From IMG/VR virus record IMGVR_UViG_2660238176_000005: a stretch of 6,346 nucleotides of DNA; one strand, 5' to 3'. The translations under genes and the position numbers were made by a program. Below, piece by piece: positions 1-6,346 of the stretch (within the stretch, counting starts at the first letter, position 1; each line of letters opens with the position of its first letter). Under the pieces are notes generated by a model that did no database searches, was not told the DNA's origin, and saw only the letters and a program-made list of their open reading frames with translations. The stretch is from a virus (Duplodnaviria; Heunggongvirae; Uroviricota; Caudoviricetes).

Positions 1-119
1 CCATCTCAGTAATACGGGAATACATTGAGATTTTCTACAATCGTCAGCGTCGTCACTCTCGTCTGGGGAATATCTCCCCGGCAGCCTTCAGGGAAAAATA
101 TCATCAGATGGCTGCTTAA
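1..119 (+). CDS. IS3-family transposase OrfB, C-terminal fragment (frame starts at nt 3; stop TAA 117-119)
   Basis: Translation from nt 3 gives ISVIREYIEIFYNRQRRHSRLGNISPAAFREKYHQMAA*. The FYNRQRRHS-LG-SP motif is the conserved C-terminal signature of IS3-family (DDE) OrfB transposases, from memory. Confidence 0.7.
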   Translation, partial: ISVIREYIEIFYNRQRRHSRLGNISPAAFREKYHQMAA

Positions 120-162
120 AAAAAGAACAAATGGTAGTGTCCGCTATTGCCAGTACACCTCA
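1..162 (+). mobile_element. IS3-family insertion sequence, right (IRR-proximal) end, truncated by the window edge; terminus ...CACCTCA at 162
   Basis: Positions 1-162 are the exact reverse complement of 6185-6346. The segment contains the 3' end of a transposase reading frame and ends in CA (the other strand begins TGAGGTGTACTGGCAATAGCGGACAC, which resembles IS3-group termini as I recall them). Confidence 0.7.
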
Positions 163-361
163 TCCATCACCGAAAAAAATTGGCTTTTACACCATTGGCG
201 ATAAAAGCATTTACCTGTATGACCTACGCCGCATGGATGAAATCATGGAGGCTCTTGATAATCGTTCGTCGATGGATTGGTGTGTTGCTGTTCATGATAT
301 GAATGCAGGGTTTGATGAAAAGATTTTGTTCCCCTCATCAGTTGAAAGCACTGCGGGTTAA
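163..361 (+). pseudogene. 3' portion of a gene interrupted by the left IS copy; the track ORF 131-361 begins inside the IS terminus
   Basis: The open frame runs without a break from inside the IS end (ATG at 131) to TAA at 359-361. The stop directly precedes the AGGAG Shine-Dalgarno of the next gene, so this was the upstream member of the same operon. No family recognised. Confidence 0.35.
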
Positions 362-371
362 GGAGTAACAC

Positions 372-539
372 ATGACCACTATTACCAAAGAACGTATTGA
401 ATTGTTCATTAAAAACCCGCTTGAAAACGGGCTTACCCGTGGTGAACAAATGGAACTGGCACGGATTGCGCTGGCATCGCTGGAAGCAGAGCCGGTTGTG
501 TTCTGGTTTGAAAAATATCAAGAAGGGGCTACGGCATGA
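372..539 (+). CDS. Hypothetical small protein, 55 aa ([55 protein letters not shown]); paralogue of the next gene
   Basis: Not in the supplied ORF track, probably because it is short. AGGAG at 361-365 sits 6 nt before ATG 372. The stop overlaps the next start as ATGA (536-539). It shares an MTT-x-T-K/R-E N-terminus and an IAL-SL-AEP motif with the 114 aa product downstream. Confidence 0.6.
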
Positions 540-880
540 CGACTTTTACCAGAGAGCAGTTAATAGCTCACGCAGAGGAGACTATTGAAGCACAGAGACT
601 GTGCATACCGGGCACAATCGACCATGACATCATCCGCACATATAAGATGGATATTGCTGTTCTGGAAATCGCACTGGTATCGCTGGCAGCAGAGCCAGCC
701 GGTAAATTGCATGAATACAAACCAGTGGGATATCAGCGTCTGGTCGATGAGTTAACCATGCTGGTAAAGCAGTTAACCTGGCAACTGAGGAAAGCGAAGC
801 CAGACTGCAAATTACCGGATAAGGCGATGAGTTATCTGGAGCGGAACGGACTGATAAGCGTGGAGGATATTTTACGATGA
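536..880 (+). CDS. Hypothetical protein, 114 aa; N-terminal half paralogous to the preceding 55 aa protein
   Basis: ORF from the track. Start overlaps the upstream stop (ATGA) and its own stop overlaps the next ATG (ATGA at 877-880). Shared motifs MTTFTREQ / [10 protein letters not shown]. No family recognised from memory. Confidence 0.65.
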
Positions 881-960
881 CCTGGCCTGAAGCATTAACA
901 ACGGTAGGAATTGCGATGGCGGTGGCGCTGGTGGTGTATTCGATTTGCCGCTGGGGATAA
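877..960 (+). CDS. Small hydrophobic peptide, 27 aa ([27 protein letters not shown]), predicted single transmembrane helix
   Basis: GGAGGA at 863-868 lies 8 nt upstream of ATG 877. The ATG overlaps the stop of the 114 aa gene. The hydrophobic core [14 protein letters not shown] is long enough to span a membrane. Below the ORF-track size cutoff. Confidence 0.45.
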
Positions 961-1171
961 AAACGGTTTGCGGGAAAAGGAGAGTTAAGTAGAATTGCAG
1001 CGGGTGCTTGAGGCTATCTGTCTCAGGCATGAACACCAAAAGGCAGATAGAGAAAAGCCCCAGTTAACATTACGCGTCCGGCAAGACGCTTAACATTAAT
1101 CTGAGGCTCAATCTATGAACGGCAAATCTAGGTTAGCCTCTTACGTGCCGAAAGGCAAGGAGAAGCAGGCT

Positions 1172-1327
1172 ATGAAGCAGCAAAAGGCGATGTTAATCGC
1201 CCTGATCGTCATCTGTTTAACCGTCATAGTGACGGCACTGGTAACGAGGAAAGACCTCTGCGAGGTACGAATTCGAACCGGCCAGACGGAGGTCGCTGTC
1301 TTCACAGCTTACGAACCTGAGGAGTAA
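1172..1327 (+). CDS. hokD: Hok/Gef-family type I toxin (HokD/RelF-like), 51 aa
   Basis: Translation MKQQKAMLIALIVICLTVIVTALVTRKDLCEVRIRTGQTEVAVFTAYEPEE matches my recollection of E. coli HokD/RelF and the Hok/Gef consensus (N-terminal TM helix, conserved Cys, C-terminal periplasmic tail). AAGGAGA at 1157-1163 sits 8 nt before the ATG. The track ORF 1115-1327 is an in-frame upstream extension. Confidence 0.85.
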   Translation: MKQQKAMLIALIVICLTVIVTALVTRKDLCEVRIRTGQTEVAVFTAYEPEE

Positions 1328-1395
1328 GAGACCAGGCGGGGGAGAAATCCCTCGCCACCTCTGATGGGGCAGGCATCCTCAATGCACCCACACTT

Positions 1396-1425
1396 AACCC
1401 GCTTCGGCGGGTTTTTGTTTTTATT
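1396..1425 (+). terminator. Rho-independent terminator / hok mRNA 3' hairpin
   Basis: CCCGC (1398-1402), UUCG tetraloop (1403-1406), GCGGG (1407-1411), followed by TTTTTGTTTTTATTTT. Confidence 0.6.
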
Positions 1426-1547
1426 TTCAACGCGTTTGAAGTTTTAGATGGTGCCGGAATAGAATCAAAAATACTTAAGTAGCGCGCAGGGAGAAGAGGG
1501 ATGGACCCCGAACAGGGGAGTGCTATTTATCTGGAAGGATTCTGTTG

Positions 1548-1829
1548 ATGAAAATCGAAGAATTACGTGAAATTTTTAGTGAAGATGGCCTCTATACTGT
1601 GCGCGTTGAGAATGGCGCTATTGTCAGCCACTGCCTTCCAGACTACACAATTCTGATAATTCAGCCGTCTTTGCCAGCAGGCACGGGCGGCGCTCTCACG
1701 CATTTAAATCTGATTGGTACCAGCATCCCCCATGCACTGAAGAACAGGCCGAATGGCTCATTCAGTGTTACCGCAGGCGCGGATGCGAGGTTAAAAAAGC
1801 CCTTAGCCTCGACTACCGTCACTGGATAA
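1548..1829 (+). CDS. Hypothetical protein, 93 aa, at the position of rem in Qin-type prophages
   Basis: ATG at 1548 follows GGAAGGA (1533-1539) with 8 nt spacing; the track start 1545 is a TTG one codon upstream. Sits between hok and the DUF968 gene, as rem does in Qin. Sequence identity to Rem is not verified. Confidence 0.5.
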   Translation: MKIEELREIFSEDGLYTVRVENGAIVSHCLPDYTILIIQPSLPAGTGGALTHLNLIGTSIPHALKNRPNGSFSVTAGADARLKKPLASTTVTG

Positions 1830-1904
1830 TCTCCGTCAGGCTCCCTTACTCCGAACGGCCAACGCGTCCGTCCCGCACATTCCAGCAACGGATCTGGAGG
1901 TAAT

Positions 1905-2963
1905 GTGCGGGTATTACTTCGACCTGTTCTGGTACCGGAACTCGGTCTGGTTATCGTTAAGCCAGGCCGTGAATCAATGTCAGCATTCCATAACGGCAGA
2001 ATACTGGTGGAGCCGGAACCAAAAAGCATGCGTAATCTGCCGTCCGGGGTCGTTCCTGCCGCTCGCCAGCCGCTGGTGGAAGACAAAACATTGCTGCCGT
2101 TTTTCAGTAACGCACGGGTGATTCGTGCTGCTGGTGGTGCTGGTGCATTGTCTGACTGGCTGTTGCGCCATATTAAATCCTGCCAGTGGCCACACGGCGA
2201 TTATCATCACAGCGAAACCGTCATTCACCGTTATGGTACCGGCGCAATGGTGTTGTGCTGGCACTGCGACAACCAGCTGCGTGACCAGACATCCGAATCA
2301 CTCGAGCAACTTGCTCATCAAAACCTGTCAGCATGGATGATTGACGTCATCGGTCACGCAATAAGCGGTACGCAGGAGCGTGAATTATCTCTGGCTGAAT
2401 TATCCTGGTGGGCGGTCCGCAATCAGGTGGCGGACGCGCTACCGGAAGCGGTATTACGTCGTTCGCTGGGGTTGCGTGCGGAAAAAATTCGCTCTGTGTA
2501 CAGTGAAAGCGACATCATACCGGGAGAGCAGACAGCCACCAGCATACTGAAGCAGCGCACAAAAAATATTGCGTTACTGCCTCACGTCCACCAGCAACAG
2601 AACCCACCACAGGAAAAGACGGTGGTCAGCATTGCCGTTGATCCGGAGTCACCGGCTCAGTATCTCCAGCGCCAGAAATCACAACGGGAAGAGATGCCTG
2701 TATACACGCGCTGGGTAAAAACGCAGAAATGCATGACGTGTGGCAATCAGGCAGATGATCCGCATCACATCATTGGTCATGGACTGGGAGGGATGGGAAC
2801 AAAGGCTGATGATTTGTTTGTTATTCCGTTATGCCGTAAATGCCGTAACGAACTACATGCCGGAGTAAAAGATTTTGAAGAGAAACACGGCAGTCAGCTG
2901 TTGTTGCTGATTCGTTTTTTAATGCACGCGAGAAATTCGGGTGTTCTGAAGTGGAAAGCATAA
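1905..2963 (+). CDS. DUF968 (YdfU-like) prophage protein, 352 aa, with a C-terminal HNH-like motif
   Basis: Long ORF with GGAGG (1896-1900) ahead of GTG 1905. The C-terminus reads C-MTC-G...DPHHIIGHG...LCRKCRNELH, a CxxC...HH...CxxC...H arrangement typical of HNH/zinc-ribbon nucleases. Same position as ydfU in Qin, between rem and Q. The start codon is uncertain (GTG 1905 or the in-frame ATG at 1977). Confidence 0.7.
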   Translation: MRVLLRPVLVPELGLVIVKPGRESMSAFHNGRILVEPEPKSMRNLPSGVVPAARQPLVEDKTLLPFFSNARVIRAAGGAGALSDWLLRHIKSCQWPHGDYHHSETVIHRYGTGAMVLCWHCDNQLRDQTSESLEQLAHQNLSAWMIDVIGHAISGTQERELSLAELSWWAVRNQVADALPEAVLRRSLGLRAEKIRSVYSESDIIPGEQTATSILKQRTKNIALLPHVHQQQNPPQEKTVVSIAVDPESPAQYLQRQKSQREEMPVYTRWVKTQKCMTCGNQADDPHHIIGHGLGGMGTKADDLFVIPLCRKCRNELHAGVKDFEEKHGSQLLLLIRFLMHARNSGVLKWKA

Positions 2964-3344
2964 ATGACCGAGCGCATAGAATTTGTTTTACCTTACCCGC
3001 CGACGGTGAACACTTACTGGCGTCGTCGTGGCAGCACATATTTTGTATCAAAAGCCGGGGAGCGTTATCGCCGGGCAGTGGCGCTTATTGTTCGCCAGCA
3101 GCGGCTGAAATTAAGCCTGTCCGGAAGGTTGGCAATAAAAATTATTGCAGAACCACCGGATAAGCGCCGCCGTGACCTGGACAATATTCTGAAAGCGCCG
3201 CTGGATGCGCTGACGCATGCGGGGTTGCTAATGGACGATGAGCAGTTTGATGAAATCAATATCGTTCGTGCTCAGCCAGTATCTGGTGGACGTCTGGGGG
3301 TGAAGATTTATCCCATAATGCTTGAAGGGCAGGTCAAAAAATGA
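2964..3344 (+). CDS. rusA: RusA-family Holliday junction resolvase, 126 aa
   Basis: Translation contains PPDKRRRDLDNILKAPLDALTHAGLLMDDEQ, matching the RusA catalytic acidic motif (RRRDLDN ... DD) as I recall it from E. coli RusA. The start ATG directly follows the DUF968 stop. Confidence 0.8.
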   Translation: MTERIEFVLPYPPTVNTYWRRRGSTYFVSKAGERYRRAVALIVRQQRLKLSLSGRLAIKIIAEPPDKRRRDLDNILKAPLDALTHAGLLMDDEQFDEINIVRAQPVSGGRLGVKIYPIMLEGQVKK

Positions 3345-4195
3345 AACTGGAAGATTTACCGAAATACTACTCCCCAAAATCCCCCGGCCTGACTGATGCA
3401 TCGGCCTCAACGTCGAAAGATGCGCTGAGTATCACTGATGTGATGGCCGCGCAGGGCATGACACAGAATCGGGCTGAGATGGGGGTTTCTGCGTTCCTTG
3501 GGAAAATGGGCATTAGTATGAATGACAGAGAGCGGGCAACAGAATTGCTGACAGAATATGCACTCAGTCGGTGTGATCGCGTGGCGGCGTTAAGAAAACT
3601 CCCGGCAGAAATAAAACCGGCAGTGATGCGTATTATGGCTTCGTATGCGTTTGAAGATTATGCCCGTAGCGCGGCGAGCAAAAAACAGTGCCCCTGCTGT
3701 CACGGAAAAAAATTTATTGAAAGCGAGGTTTTTACAAACAAGATCCAGTATCCGGATGGTAAGCCGCCGGTATGGGCAAAGTGTACGAAAGGTGTGTATC
3801 CGTCTTACTGGGAAGAATGGAAAAAAGTCAGGGAGGTGGTAAAAGTTGCCTGTCCGGAGTGTGGCGGAAAGGGTGAGGTTTCCACCGCCTGTAAGGATTG
3901 CCGTGGGCGTGGTGTCGCCATTCATCGTGAAGAGTCGGTAAAACGTGGTATGCCTGTTATCAGAGACTGCCAGCGTTGTGGTGGTCGTGGCTATGAAAGA
4001 CTACCATCAACGGAGGCATTTAATGCTATATGCGAGGTGACAAACCAGATAACACGCGCGTCATGGGAAAAAACAGTTAAGAAATTCTATGATGCGCTGG
4101 TGACTCGGTTTGATATTGAAGAAGCATGGGCTGAGCGGCAGTTAAAAAAGGTAACTAGGTTGATTTTTCCGGAATCTGTGGTAAATTCGTCATAA
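3341..4195 (+). CDS. Late-gene antitermination protein Q (phage 82/Qin QuuQ-like), 284 aa, with DnaJ-like zinc-finger repeats
   Basis: Start overlaps the rusA stop (ATGA). Central region carries CPCCHGKKF, CPECGGKGE, CKDCRGRG and CQRCGGRGYE, i.e. repeated CxxCxGxG motifs. Lies immediately upstream of a terminator and tRNA genes, as Q does in lambdoid/Stx phages. Confidence 0.7.
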   Translation: MKLEDLPKYYSPKSPGLTDASASTSKDALSITDVMAAQGMTQNRAEMGVSAFLGKMGISMNDRERATELLTEYALSRCDRVAALRKLPAEIKPAVMRIMASYAFEDYARSAASKKQCPCCHGKKFIESEVFTNKIQYPDGKPPVWAKCTKGVYPSYWEEWKKVREVVKVACPECGGKGEVSTACKDCRGRGVAIHREESVKRGMPVIRDCQRCGGRGYERLPSTEAFNAICEVTNQITRASWEKTVKKFYDALVTRFDIEEAWAERQLKKVTRLIFPESVVNSS

Positions 4196-4234
4196 CTATG
4201 GGCGTTTTATGCCTGACGTTAGAAGAGTTTCTAC

Positions 4235-4260
4235 AACCCGCCGCCGAGCGGGTTTTTTAT
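4235..4260 (+). terminator. Rho-independent terminator downstream of Q (candidate tR'-type site)
   Basis: CCCGC (4237-4241), 6-nt loop, GCGGG (4248-4252), then TTTTTT (4253-4258). Confidence 0.5.
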
Positions 4261-4288
4261 TGCGGAATTAATTACGGACCGTTATTAT
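4260..4288 (+). promoter_or_regulatory. Candidate sigma70 promoter directly upstream of the first tRNA
   Basis: TTGCGG (4260-4265), 17-nt spacer, TATTAT (4283-4288). The predicted start site falls about 7-10 nt later, at the 5' end of the tRNA (4298). Motif match only. Confidence 0.3.
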
Positions 4289-4297
4289 TCTGCTCCC

Positions 4298-4373
4298 GGC
4301 CCTTTAGCTCAGTGGTGAGAGCGAGCGACTCATAATCGCCAGGTCGCTGGTTCAAATCCAGCAAGGGCCACCA
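4298..4373 (+). tRNA. tRNA with anticodon CAU, most similar to minor tRNA-Ile2 (ileX/ileZ-like; decodes AUA after lysidine modification); Met cannot be excluded from the anticodon alone
   Basis: Full cloverleaf read by hand: acceptor GGCCCTT/AAGGGCC, D-arm GCTC-AGTGGTGA-GAGC, anticodon loop CTCATAA, T-arm GCTGG-TTCAAAT-CCAGC, discriminator A, encoded CCA. Near-identical to my memory of E. coli ileX. Confidence 0.8.
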
Positions 4374-4473
4374 TCACAAACCGCCATTAGCTTATCAGGA
4401 AGAGCAGACGACACGATAACAGGGTTGTTGGTGCGGGGGCGGGTCCCCGATGGCGGTCCATTATCGGTATTCA

Positions 4474-4550
4474 GCGTTGTTAGCTCAGCCGGACAGAGCA
4501 ATTGCCTTCTAAGCAATCGGTCACTGGTTCGAATCCAGTACAGCGCGCCA
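4474..4550 (+). tRNA. tRNA-Arg, anticodon UCU (decodes AGA/AGG); phage argN/argO-like
   Basis: Cloverleaf read by hand: acceptor GCGTTGT/ACAGCGC (one G-U pair), D-arm GCTC-AGCCGGACA-GAGC, anticodon loop CTTCTAA, T-arm ACTGG-TTCGAAT-CCAGT, discriminator G, encoded CCA. Confidence 0.8.
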
Positions 4551-4660
4551 TATTCATTCTTCCAGATTCCTTCCGGCAGAGCCTTATACTGAAATATACC
4601 TGGCTCAGGATATTGTTGAAAATATTTTATGTTTGTCAAAAATAAAAGTTCTGTTAAGTA

Positions 4661-5014
4661 TTGATTGAGTGTTTGTTATACGGTCTAATGGTTTTTTCAG
4701 CATTAAATATTTATCATTCATATGGTGTGGGTAGAGTGAATATTGATGAGGCGTCGGGGTGTTTCATCCTTAGGCAGCGTATTGATATAGTCAATGCAGC
4801 ACGAGCAAAGGCCTTCAGCCGTTTGACAGTTTTGTTCTGTACTCCTGATCGTCTTTCGGGAAGAGACGTTATTATTCTGAATAGTGATGCTATACAGAGG
4901 GTTTGCGATGAGTTCATGGTTGCTAATTCAGAATTATTTGCTCTTGTTCAGGAGTACAACAGAATAGCCAGGACCTGTGGTATGGATGAACTTCGGATTA
5001 CTCATCTGGGGTAG
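4661..5014 (+). CDS. Hypothetical cargo (moron) protein, up to 117 aa, start uncertain (TTG 4661, ATG 4688 or GTG 4727/4736)
   Basis: ORF co-directional with the tRNAs and ending 5012-5014. Of 11 Arg codons, 6 are AGA/AGG; of 11 Ile codons, 3 are AUA. These are the codons read by the two adjacent tRNAs. No strong Shine-Dalgarno sequence and no recognisable family. Confidence 0.45.
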   Translation: MIECLLYGLMVFSALNIYHSYGVGRVNIDEASGCFILRQRIDIVNAARAKAFSRLTVLFCTPDRLSGRDVIILNSDAIQRVCDEFMVANSELFALVQEYNRIARTCGMDELRITHLG

Positions 5015-5094
5015 ATACATATCTGGATTATCACCTGTTACGGTAAAAAGTGATTGCTTACTGTTTTTGTGAATGGCATTGCAGCAGCCGGATA

Positions 5095-5181
5095 ATGTCA
5101 GTGCTGGCTGACGGTGTGCTGGTGGCGGGTGTGGTGGTTGTTGCTTTCCCGTTGCTGAAAAAGAAAACGCCAGACTGTTAG
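5095..5181 (+). CDS. Possible small hydrophobic peptide, 28 aa (MSVLADGVLVAGVVVVAFPLLKKKTPDC); could equally be a gene remnant
   Basis: ATG at 5095 to TAG at 5179-5181; the frame is open back to 5047 with a GTG at 5050. Hydrophobic stretch followed by KKK. Weak ribosome-binding site. Confidence 0.2.
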   Translation: MSVLADGVLVAGVVVVAFPLLKKKTPDC

Positions 5182-5405
5182 CCGGGTATCAGTTAGCGGG
5201 AGAAATTTTTAAATACTTCACAATTCAGGCGGTTGACTGTTGTCTGGTTTGCGGGGAGTTTGTTAAAAGAAACTGGCATGGTGAATCCCCCTGTGCGGAG
5301 GGGCAATCAGCGAGTAGGTATATGGGATAATCGCGGATTCAGGTGCTGGTACTGAATTCACCGGGAGGCACCCGGCACCATGCAATGGCACATAGCGCCA
5401 CTCTC

Positions 5406-5445
5406 CAGCCCCTCTCCGGAGGGGCTGTTTATATTGATTTTGTCA
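5406..5445 (+). terminator. Rho-independent terminator ending the + strand tRNA/cargo transcription unit
   Basis: CAGCCCCTC (5406-5414), loop TCCG, GAGGGGCTG (5419-5427), then TTTATATTGATTTT. Confidence 0.6.
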
Positions 5446-5458
5446 GATGTGAGTAAAC

Positions 5459-5492
5459 TCCTTATGGACTTTGTTGTTTTAGTCCATAAGGA
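5459..5492 (-). repeat. Perfect 12-bp inverted repeat (TCCTTATGGACT / AGTCCATAAGGA) with 10-nt loop, overlapping the 3' end of the minus-strand ORF; possible terminator or RNA stability hairpin
   Basis: 5459-5470 is the exact reverse complement of 5481-5492. The stop codon of ORF 5462-5797 (-) lies inside the stem. Confidence 0.5.
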
Positions 5493-5797
5493 CATATTTG
5501 CAGAGTGCAACGGTTATTAAAGCATTCATTCAATACGTTATCTGTATTTGTAGGGCATTCCTGGCTATTTTTGATTGAATTCCAGAATGTTTTATTGAAT
5601 GGTACTACGTTGTAAATGGTTACAGGTAGCACTTTGTTATTGAGCATGATGCCTGTGTGAGTCAGTGTAAATATACTTTCAGGAGGTAAGAAAGCATCCG
5701 ATTGATACCAGATTATTAATTTTATTTTACTCCATATGACTGAAAAAGATATTCCGCATGATGGCTGGATAACTGTATCAATCACAATCCACTTCAT
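5462..5797 (-). CDS. Hypothetical protein, 111 aa, encoded in an AT-rich island; cysteine-containing C-terminal region
   Basis: Only sizeable ORF on the minus strand that does not overlap a + strand gene. Upstream on its own strand is ...CAAGGAAACTAA-ATG (AAGGA about 6 nt from the start). Local G+C is about 27-30% in the two 60-nt lines counted by hand, against an estimated 60% in a line counted inside the DUF968 gene. Transcribed convergently toward the + strand terminator. Confidence 0.5.
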
Positions 5798-6057
5798 TTA
5801 GTTTCCTTGTTTATGCCTTGCTGGTGATGTTCTGAAAAGTATAAATGATATTTTTGAATGTAAACCATAGAGCAGAATTATTTTTCTGATGTTGTTTATT
5901 GTTTATTTAAATGCAGGGTGGTTTATATCTCGTCTTGTAGTTTATCCATGCATATCTGCTTGATAATCAGGTTTTTATTTAAGGTATGGTTTTGTGTTTT
6001 TTCTGTATTACATGTCAGGTATTTTAAAGAATTATTTTTCAGATGGTGGAAAGAACC

Positions 6058-6184
6058 ATGGCATTTAAACACTATGATGTTGTCAGGGCGGCGCCGCCGT
6101 CAGATCTTGCGGAAAAGCTGACACATAAACTGAAAGAGGGCTGGCAGCCGTTTGGTAGTCCGGTGGCCATAACCCCTTATACCC
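6058..6184 (+). pseudogene. 5' fragment (42 codons, MAFKHYDVVRAAPPSDLAEKLTHKLKEGWQPFGSPVAITPY) of a gene interrupted by the right IS copy
   Basis: ATG at 6058 (an in-frame ATG also at 6043). The frame runs straight into the IS terminus at 6185, so the rest of the track ORF 6043-6231 is IS sequence. Confidence 0.4.
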
Positions 6185-6346
6185 TGAGGTGTACTGGCAA
6201 TAGCGGACACTACCATTTGTTCTTTTTTTAAGCAGCCATCTGATGATATTTTTCCCTGAAGGCTGCCGGGGAGATATTCCCCAGACGAGAGTGACGACGC
6301 TGACGATTGTAGAAAATCTCAATGTATTCCCGTATTACTGAGATGG
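6185..6346 (-). mobile_element. Second copy of the same IS3-family element end, inverted relative to 1-162, IRR facing inward, truncated by the window edge
   Basis: Exact reverse complement of 1-162; terminus TGAGGTG... begins at 6185. Confidence 0.7.
6228..6346 (-). CDS. IS3-family transposase OrfB, C-terminal fragment (minus strand; stop complement at 6228-6230)
   Basis: Mirror image of the 1-119 partial CDS. Confidence 0.7.
   Translation of the reverse strand, partial: ISVIREYIEIFYNRQRRHSRLGNISPAAFREKYHQMAA

Follow-up and report, generated by a model that had tools for sequence, protein, structure and literature searches.

IS600 is an insertion sequence (IS) of the IS3 family that was first described in Shigella sonnei, and the members of this family move by a copy-out/paste-in transposition mechanism. 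In the defective Shiga toxin (Stx) prophage of Shigella dysenteriae type 1, IS600 copies reportedly bracket the region next to the stx genes. PMC12795559, in which Seferbekova et al. 2021 is cited, describes IS-flanked inversions as a feature of S. sonnei genome evolution. The present analysis concerns the IMG/VR record IMGVR_UViG_2660238176_000005, a caudoviricete stretch of 6,346 nt (hereafter the window, meaning the whole stretch of DNA analysed), in which the nin/Q region of a lambdoid prophage lies between two inverted ends of IS600. With regard to IS600 itself nothing differs from the described element; of each copy, the window carries no more than the final 162 nt. In Escherichia coli, intact lambdoid prophages integrated at ompW (e.g., L037, GL872249.1; L001, NZ_CP093011.1) are 92-99% identical to the window interior and share the order hokD, DUF968, RusA, Q, (methyltransferase), tRNA-Ile/Arg, DUF3927, iraM, DUF1737, holin, lysozyme, and Rz. 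Unlike the S. sonnei remnants described below, these E. coli prophages have no IS600, carry extra inserts, retain an intact integrase and early region, and are followed by the lysis genes, whereas in S. sonnei the integrase is reduced to its last ~355 nt, the early region is partly inverted, and the lysis genes are either missing or no longer adjacent. The Stx prophage of S. dysenteriae type 1 is likewise what remains of a lambdoid late region in the chromosome of a Shigella species (PMC7819885); it is likened to the present locus by description and differs in species, in locus, and in cargo (stx there, iraM and tRNAs here). All components of the window are of already known kinds, namely IS600, Shigella lambdoid remnants, IS-mediated rearrangement, and repeat-induced contig ends or mis-joins.

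The window is a mosaic of two separate S. sonnei prophage remnants, here called left and right, which are joined inside the Q antiterminator gene. In a base-by-base comparison, window positions 1-4086 differed from the left locus (L013) at a single base (1369), and positions 3744-6346 differed from the right locus (L023) at a single base (4342). Outside these ranges the loci diverge. The RusA-Q paralogue of the right locus (L023 6915-8203, compared with window 2972-4260) has 69 differing sites over window positions 2972-3743, including 35 single nucleotide polymorphisms (SNPs) in 3385-3743, while three SNPs and an 8-bp indel set the left locus apart from the window past position 4086, and past 4260 the two are unrelated. 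The indel shortens Q from 284 to 273 aa; in E. coli, Q alleles of either length occur naturally and are common. Over the 343 bases at 3744-4086 the two loci are identical; the switch from left to right lies within this stretch, and the Q protein of the window is a hybrid of a left-locus N-terminus and a right-locus C-terminus.

The ends of the window are ends of IS600. The repeat finder detected two arms of 162 nt (1-162 and 6185-6346) with 100% complementarity and a spacing of 6022 nt; no other inverted pair longer than 34 nt was found in the window, and the interior itself does not form a palindrome. Translated in frame 3, the left arm gives ISVIREYIEIFYNRQRRHSRLGNISPAAFREKYHQMAA, that is, 38 codons ending at the stop at 117-119, and after the stop a further 43 nt lead to the end of the element, ...GTACACCTCA, at position 162. 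Copies labelled in RefSeq as 'IS3-like element IS600 family transposase' are 100% identical to the arm, which matches 6163 places in 2908 of the 5426 complete E. coli genomes. A full IS600 copy taken from a closed chromosome measures 1264 bp, with a left terminus TGAGGTAGCC... and a right terminus TGAGGTGTAC..., and its edges coincide with window positions 162 and 6185. The terminal repeats are imperfect and of the TG...CA type (TGAGGTAGCCTGAGTTTAACGGACAC on the left aligned to TGAGGTGTACTGGCAATAGCGGACAC on the right). Within the window only the right terminus is present, not the left one; since the element ends exactly at 162 and 6185, both arms are right inverted repeats (IRRs) facing inward. 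The earlier note, which was made from the sequence alone, had described the ends as exact reverse complements of an IS3-family element, each with the last 38 transposase codons and an inward-facing IRR. The repeat finder and the translation agree with this description, and the identity to IS600 names the element.

The two junctions between IS600 and prophage DNA were looked up through the open reading frames (ORFs) that span them, one of 76 aa (131-361) and one of 57 aa (6058-6231). Hundreds of contigs carry each ORF, and dozens of these are closed chromosomes with proteins named for Shigella sonnei; one of these chromosomes, HE616528.1, we take to be that of S. sonnei strain 53G. In closed S. 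sonnei chromosomes a full-length 1264-bp IS600 adjoins both junctions, encoding a 100-aa HTH_Tnp_1 protein (orfA) and a 272-aa rve protein (orfB) or a 385-aa fusion of the two, and the RefSeq entry for an IS3-family transposase coding sequence (CDS) nearby mentions a programmed frameshift. The junctions are not close to each other: in CP022457.1 they lie 734,400 bp apart in the same orientation. The left remnant, beside ompW, reads IS600, the 76-aa ORF (a truncated 87-aa gene), hokD, DUF968, RusA (126 aa), Q (273 aa), methyltransferase, and tRNAs, followed in most strains by a third IS600 and then by nanS-p and holin genes. The right remnant, near an ipaH gene, reads IS21, an 85-aa ORF, RusA (124 aa), Q (284 aa), tRNAs, DUF3927, iraM, and the truncated DUF1737 ORF, which meets IS600 in the opposite orientation; beyond this IS600 lies unrelated phage DNA, likewise in opposite orientation. 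The separation of the two layouts was consistent. The left-junction ORF was accompanied by the 273-aa Q and the methyltransferase in 10 of 10 distinct closed-genome contexts, the right-junction ORF by IS21, the 124-aa RusA and the 284-aa Q in 10 of 10, and the 126-aa RusA by the 273-aa Q and the methyltransferase in all of 10 additional contexts in complete genomes of E. coli and S. sonnei.

Compared with the E. coli prophage L001, window position 163 is equivalent to base 66 (L001 4001) in a gene of 264 nt and position 6184 falls 42 codons into the DUF1737 ORF, so the two IS copies interrupt two different genes. The homologues in these prophages thus bear out the proposal that the sequences abutting the arms (163-361 and 6058-6184) are fragments of different genes, and the different target sites, together with the complete copies in closed S. 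sonnei genomes, support two separate insertions. When the junctions were used as 160-nt queries, neither was found in any of the 5,426 complete E. coli genomes; a two-piece E. coli match (H58) was rejected as a different IS600 insertion near a DUF1737 gene and not the right junction. The exact left junction was also not found among the species-representative genomes, which apparently do not include S. sonnei.

The hybrid Q differed from its parental forms in the contigs on which it occurs. An exact look-up placed the hybrid protein (P0004) on 366 contigs, the longest of 83,956 nt, while the parental forms P0001 and P0002 were each found on at least 1000 contigs of up to 5.04 Mb. None of the 385 index blocks with the hybrid Q held a contig longer than 0.2 Mb, compared with 89 of the 795 blocks with the left-junction ORF (Fisher's test, p about 2e-28 with blocks counted as independent, which they are not truly, so that the value gives only the direction of the effect). 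In draft assemblies the hybrid Q led into either downstream path, that of the methyltransferase (L004 and L010) or that of iraM (L005, L006, and L011). The iraM path and then the methyltransferase path followed each other in L009, alternative paths stood in tandem in L003, L005, and L009, and scaffold L008 contained both reciprocal hybrids together. Still other draft contigs had their first base 31-98 nt into this end of IS600. Such behaviour is typical of a repeat that is present in two copies and too long to be bridged by short reads. The reciprocal hybrid Q, with a right N-terminus and a left C-terminus, was considered as a marker of mis-joins and rejected, as it is a common natural E. coli allele (P0003) present on 5.36-Mb contigs; only the presence in L008 of the exact S. 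sonnei-derived reciprocal DNA alongside the window-type hybrid is suggestive. As a separate observation, L003, L005, L008, L009, and L011 show duplicated Q, iraM, and DUF1737 blocks in succession, which look like scaffolding or gap-filling artefacts, and the gene order in these five is unsuitable as evidence.

Among the loci examined, simple IS600 insertions show a 3-bp target duplication, GGA/GGA for the third copy of the left locus and GTG/GTG for a copy in a dam gene. No matching duplication was found in the flanks of either copy that bounds the window, the triplets at the left and right termini being TTT and TCC for the left copy and TAG and GGG for the right copy. Of the things the earlier note proposed to look for, complete IS copies are thus present and matching duplications are not there now. 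The missing 5' half of the left gene was located 3 kb leftward in inverted orientation, ending ...GCTG and then TCC; because the displaced half still ends in TCC, this triplet, one copy of which occupies window positions 163-165, represents the original duplication of the left insertion. The 5' half with its TCC forms a direct fusion with the remainder, the last ~355 nt, of a lambda-type integrase gene next to ompW (L014 6612-7249, CP032523.1), and the inverted block beside the left junction contains an IS1 in most strains. The left insertion is therefore a normal transposition followed by inversion and deletion. The fusion breakpoint in L014 coincides exactly with the former left terminus of IS600, although no IS is present at the new joint. 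For the right insertion, neither a 3' part of the DUF1737 ORF adjoining IS600 nor a left-terminus flank ending ...TCAGGG was found among the loci examined, where only intact nanS-p-type DUF1737 genes matched; the 3' continuation may have been lost.

Recombination between these two inverted IS600 copies did occur. In CP045932.1 (L021 1-8768) the DNA outside the left-junction IS600 is the reverse complement of the right-junction outer flank found elsewhere (L023 11392-20174), with 99.93% identity over 8768 nt, and the inside of the left junction is unchanged. The exchange of the outer flanks points to a ~0.73-Mb inversion by IS600-by-IS600 recombination. It carries the same inverted-IS signature as the inversions described for S. 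sonnei, over ~0.73 Mb and not over the 6 kb of the window. The suggestion that the inverted copies can invert the DNA between them holds in this sense, with an enclosed segment far larger than the one the window displays. Both S. sonnei remnants are clearly defective, as had been supposed for a single prophage. In the left one the integrase is cut as described above and the early region is inverted or lost; the right one has IS21 upstream and foreign DNA past its IS600. The idea that Q has been cut off from the lysis genes by the IS applies to the right remnant, where no lysis genes follow.

Taken together, the 6-kb IS-bracketed unit is probably an assembly path that joins the left and right remnants inside Q and not a physical segment of a chromosome. 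The window would be a whole short-read contig from Shigella sonnei, with both ends stopping in IS600, which is multicopy in each genome; the contig would enter the shared 343-nt Q stretch from the left remnant and leave it along the right remnant, and we infer that the join was made by the assembler. Each IS600 probably arrived by ordinary copy-out/paste-in transposition with a 3-bp duplication, and later IS-by-IS recombination reshuffled the outer flanks of both copies. As each end runs the same 162 nt into a collapsed repeat, the arms are identical by construction, and their perfect identity is therefore uninformative on the age of the insertions; the stop at one IS600 position at both ends also means that the ends are not an arbitrary cut. 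Several observations weigh against an assembly origin. The window contains a single clean switch and no fine alternation of alleles, and a real crossover or conversion tract would look alike. The hybrid Q occurs in about half of the draft assemblies, which is high for a random mis-join, although such a rate is consistent with an even choice between two alleles of equal coverage. The index blocks and contigs are phylogenetically non-independent, and closed genomes may under-sample some lineages. A polymorphism of IS600 located 163 nt from its right terminus, which would explain the 162-nt overhang, was found in none of 46 copies and pieces.

The same single switch is what a real event would leave if ectopic gene conversion or a double crossover, through the 343-nt Q stretch and the downstream IS600, had put the side with the tRNAs, iraM, and the truncated DUF1737 ORF into the left remnant in place of the methyltransferase side. 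Both loci are laid out in the same orientation from Q to a minus-strand IS600, which provides homology on both sides, the left remnant of most closed genomes is itself bracketed by inverted IS600 copies with right termini inward around a 6365-nt interior, and S. sonnei genomes often undergo rearrangement, both IS-mediated and homologous (PMC12795559). We nevertheless consider this origin unlikely: the hybrid Q is missing from all contigs above 84 kb in the collection, whereas dozens of closed chromosomes have the parental forms, the hybrid precedes either downstream path in drafts, which is not expected of one real allele, and a conversion would turn 3744-6184 into an exact two-copy repeat at which most assemblers would break. 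It is similarly doubtful that some widespread sublineage of S. sonnei without closed genomes truly carries the hybrid, as the product of ectopic conversion across 0.73 Mb. If the hybrid were real, the module of iraM and tRNAs would have been copied into the ompW remnant with a 284-aa Q restored, and the 6-kb segment between the inverted IS600 copies would be able to flip by homologous recombination. A 734-kb deletion between the directly oriented Q genes was rejected as an origin, being implausible for a viable chromosome. Mobilisation of the enclosed prophage genes by the two IS600 copies as a composite transposon, as the earlier note had also envisaged, agrees with the geometry of two inverted copies around a 6-kb cargo and with nothing else, and it is very improbable. 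The outer flanks (TTT, or TAG after the inversion, versus TAG) and the inner ones (TCC versus GGG) share no 3-bp duplication, and the junctions always lie in their two native contexts or in derivatives of these by IS recombination, with no second site and no occurrence outside S. sonnei in the collections searched. The distance between the junctions in CP022457.1 also leaves no contiguous unit to be moved, and the hybrid Q that would link them is confined to the shorter contigs. Because of their perfect identity, the arms had further been suspected to be an assembly artefact of the fold-back (palindromic) kind, to which no real IS junctions would correspond. In that form there is next to no chance of it, given the full-length IS600 beside both junctions in dozens of independently closed chromosomes and the non-palindromic interior; the distrust of perfect identity was nonetheless right, as the arms are more readily understood as collapsed-repeat ends of the contig.

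With an assembly path as the preferred reading, identical inverted contig ends in IS-rich genomes such as those of Shigella should be read with caution, as showing only that the same repeat family is present at both ends, and the interior of such a contig can silently fuse two paralogous prophage remnants. To deduce from the window an invertible or mobile 6-kb cassette, or a linkage of Q and iraM in this prophage, would probably misrepresent the actual chromosome. The underlying biology, comprising prophage-disabling IS600 insertions and inversion between IS copies, is well documented in Shigella.

The features of the window are listed in Table 1. The interior has a lambdoid late-control layout, with matches to PF06147 (DUF968), PF05866 (RusA), and PF03589 (Q) and then tRNAs; the lysis genes lie outside the window.

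Table 1. Features of the 6,346-nt window and their coordinates.
Feature	Position	Strand	Remarks
IS600 3' end	1-162	+	last 38 orfB codons 3-116, stop 117-119, 43 nt to IRR
Fusion ORF, 76 aa	131-361	+	start inside IS600; annotated in S. sonnei, e.g., Q3Z0Y9_SHISS
3' fragment of small prophage gene	163-361	+	199 of 264 nt; homologue WP_000224216.1
Two small prophage ORFs, 55 aa and 114 aa	372-880	+	no function assigned
hok/sok type I toxin-antitoxin module	1002-1327	+	Rfam sok model 1002-1177; hokD CDS 1172-1327; PF01848
DUF968 protein, 352 aa	1905-2963	+	PF06147
RusA Holliday-junction resolvase, 126 aa	2964-3344	+	left-locus allele
Q antiterminator, hybrid, 284 aa	3341-4195	+	N-terminal part left-locus, C-terminal part right-locus
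Stretch identical in both S. sonnei loci, 343 nt	3744-4086		contains allele switch
tRNA, CAT anticodon	4298-4373	+	ARAGORN: Met; RefSeq homologue in E. coli prophages: tRNA-Ile
tRNA-Arg (TCT)	4474-4550	+	
DUF3927 small protein, 43 aa	5050-5181	+	PF13064
STnc100 small RNA (sRNA) family match	5247-5436	+	Rfam, 132 bits versus gathering score 47
IraM anti-adaptor protein, 111 aa	5462-5797	-	PmrD fold; PF11183
DUF1737 ORF 5' fragment, 42 codons	6058-6184	+	57-aa fusion ORF extends to 6231 inside IS600
IS600 3' end	6185-6346	-	exact reverse complement of 1-162; IRR at 6185

Some variation among the S. sonnei strains was also observed. The third IS600 of the left locus (L013 16398-17661), with its clean GGA duplication, is located between the tRNA region and nanS-p and is absent in L014 and L019. 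The strains without it have instead a 250-bp Rem-gene insert at the point corresponding to window position 1635/1636, and the two states appear to mark two sublineages. In strain 53G (L025 10275-11043) the right-junction IS600 contains a nested IS1, inserted 148 nt from the right end of IS600. With regard to the RNA genes, the tRNA with the CAT anticodon is probably of the phage ileZ type and read as Ile after lysidine modification, and the strong STnc100 match sits in the prophage cargo between DUF3927 and iraM.

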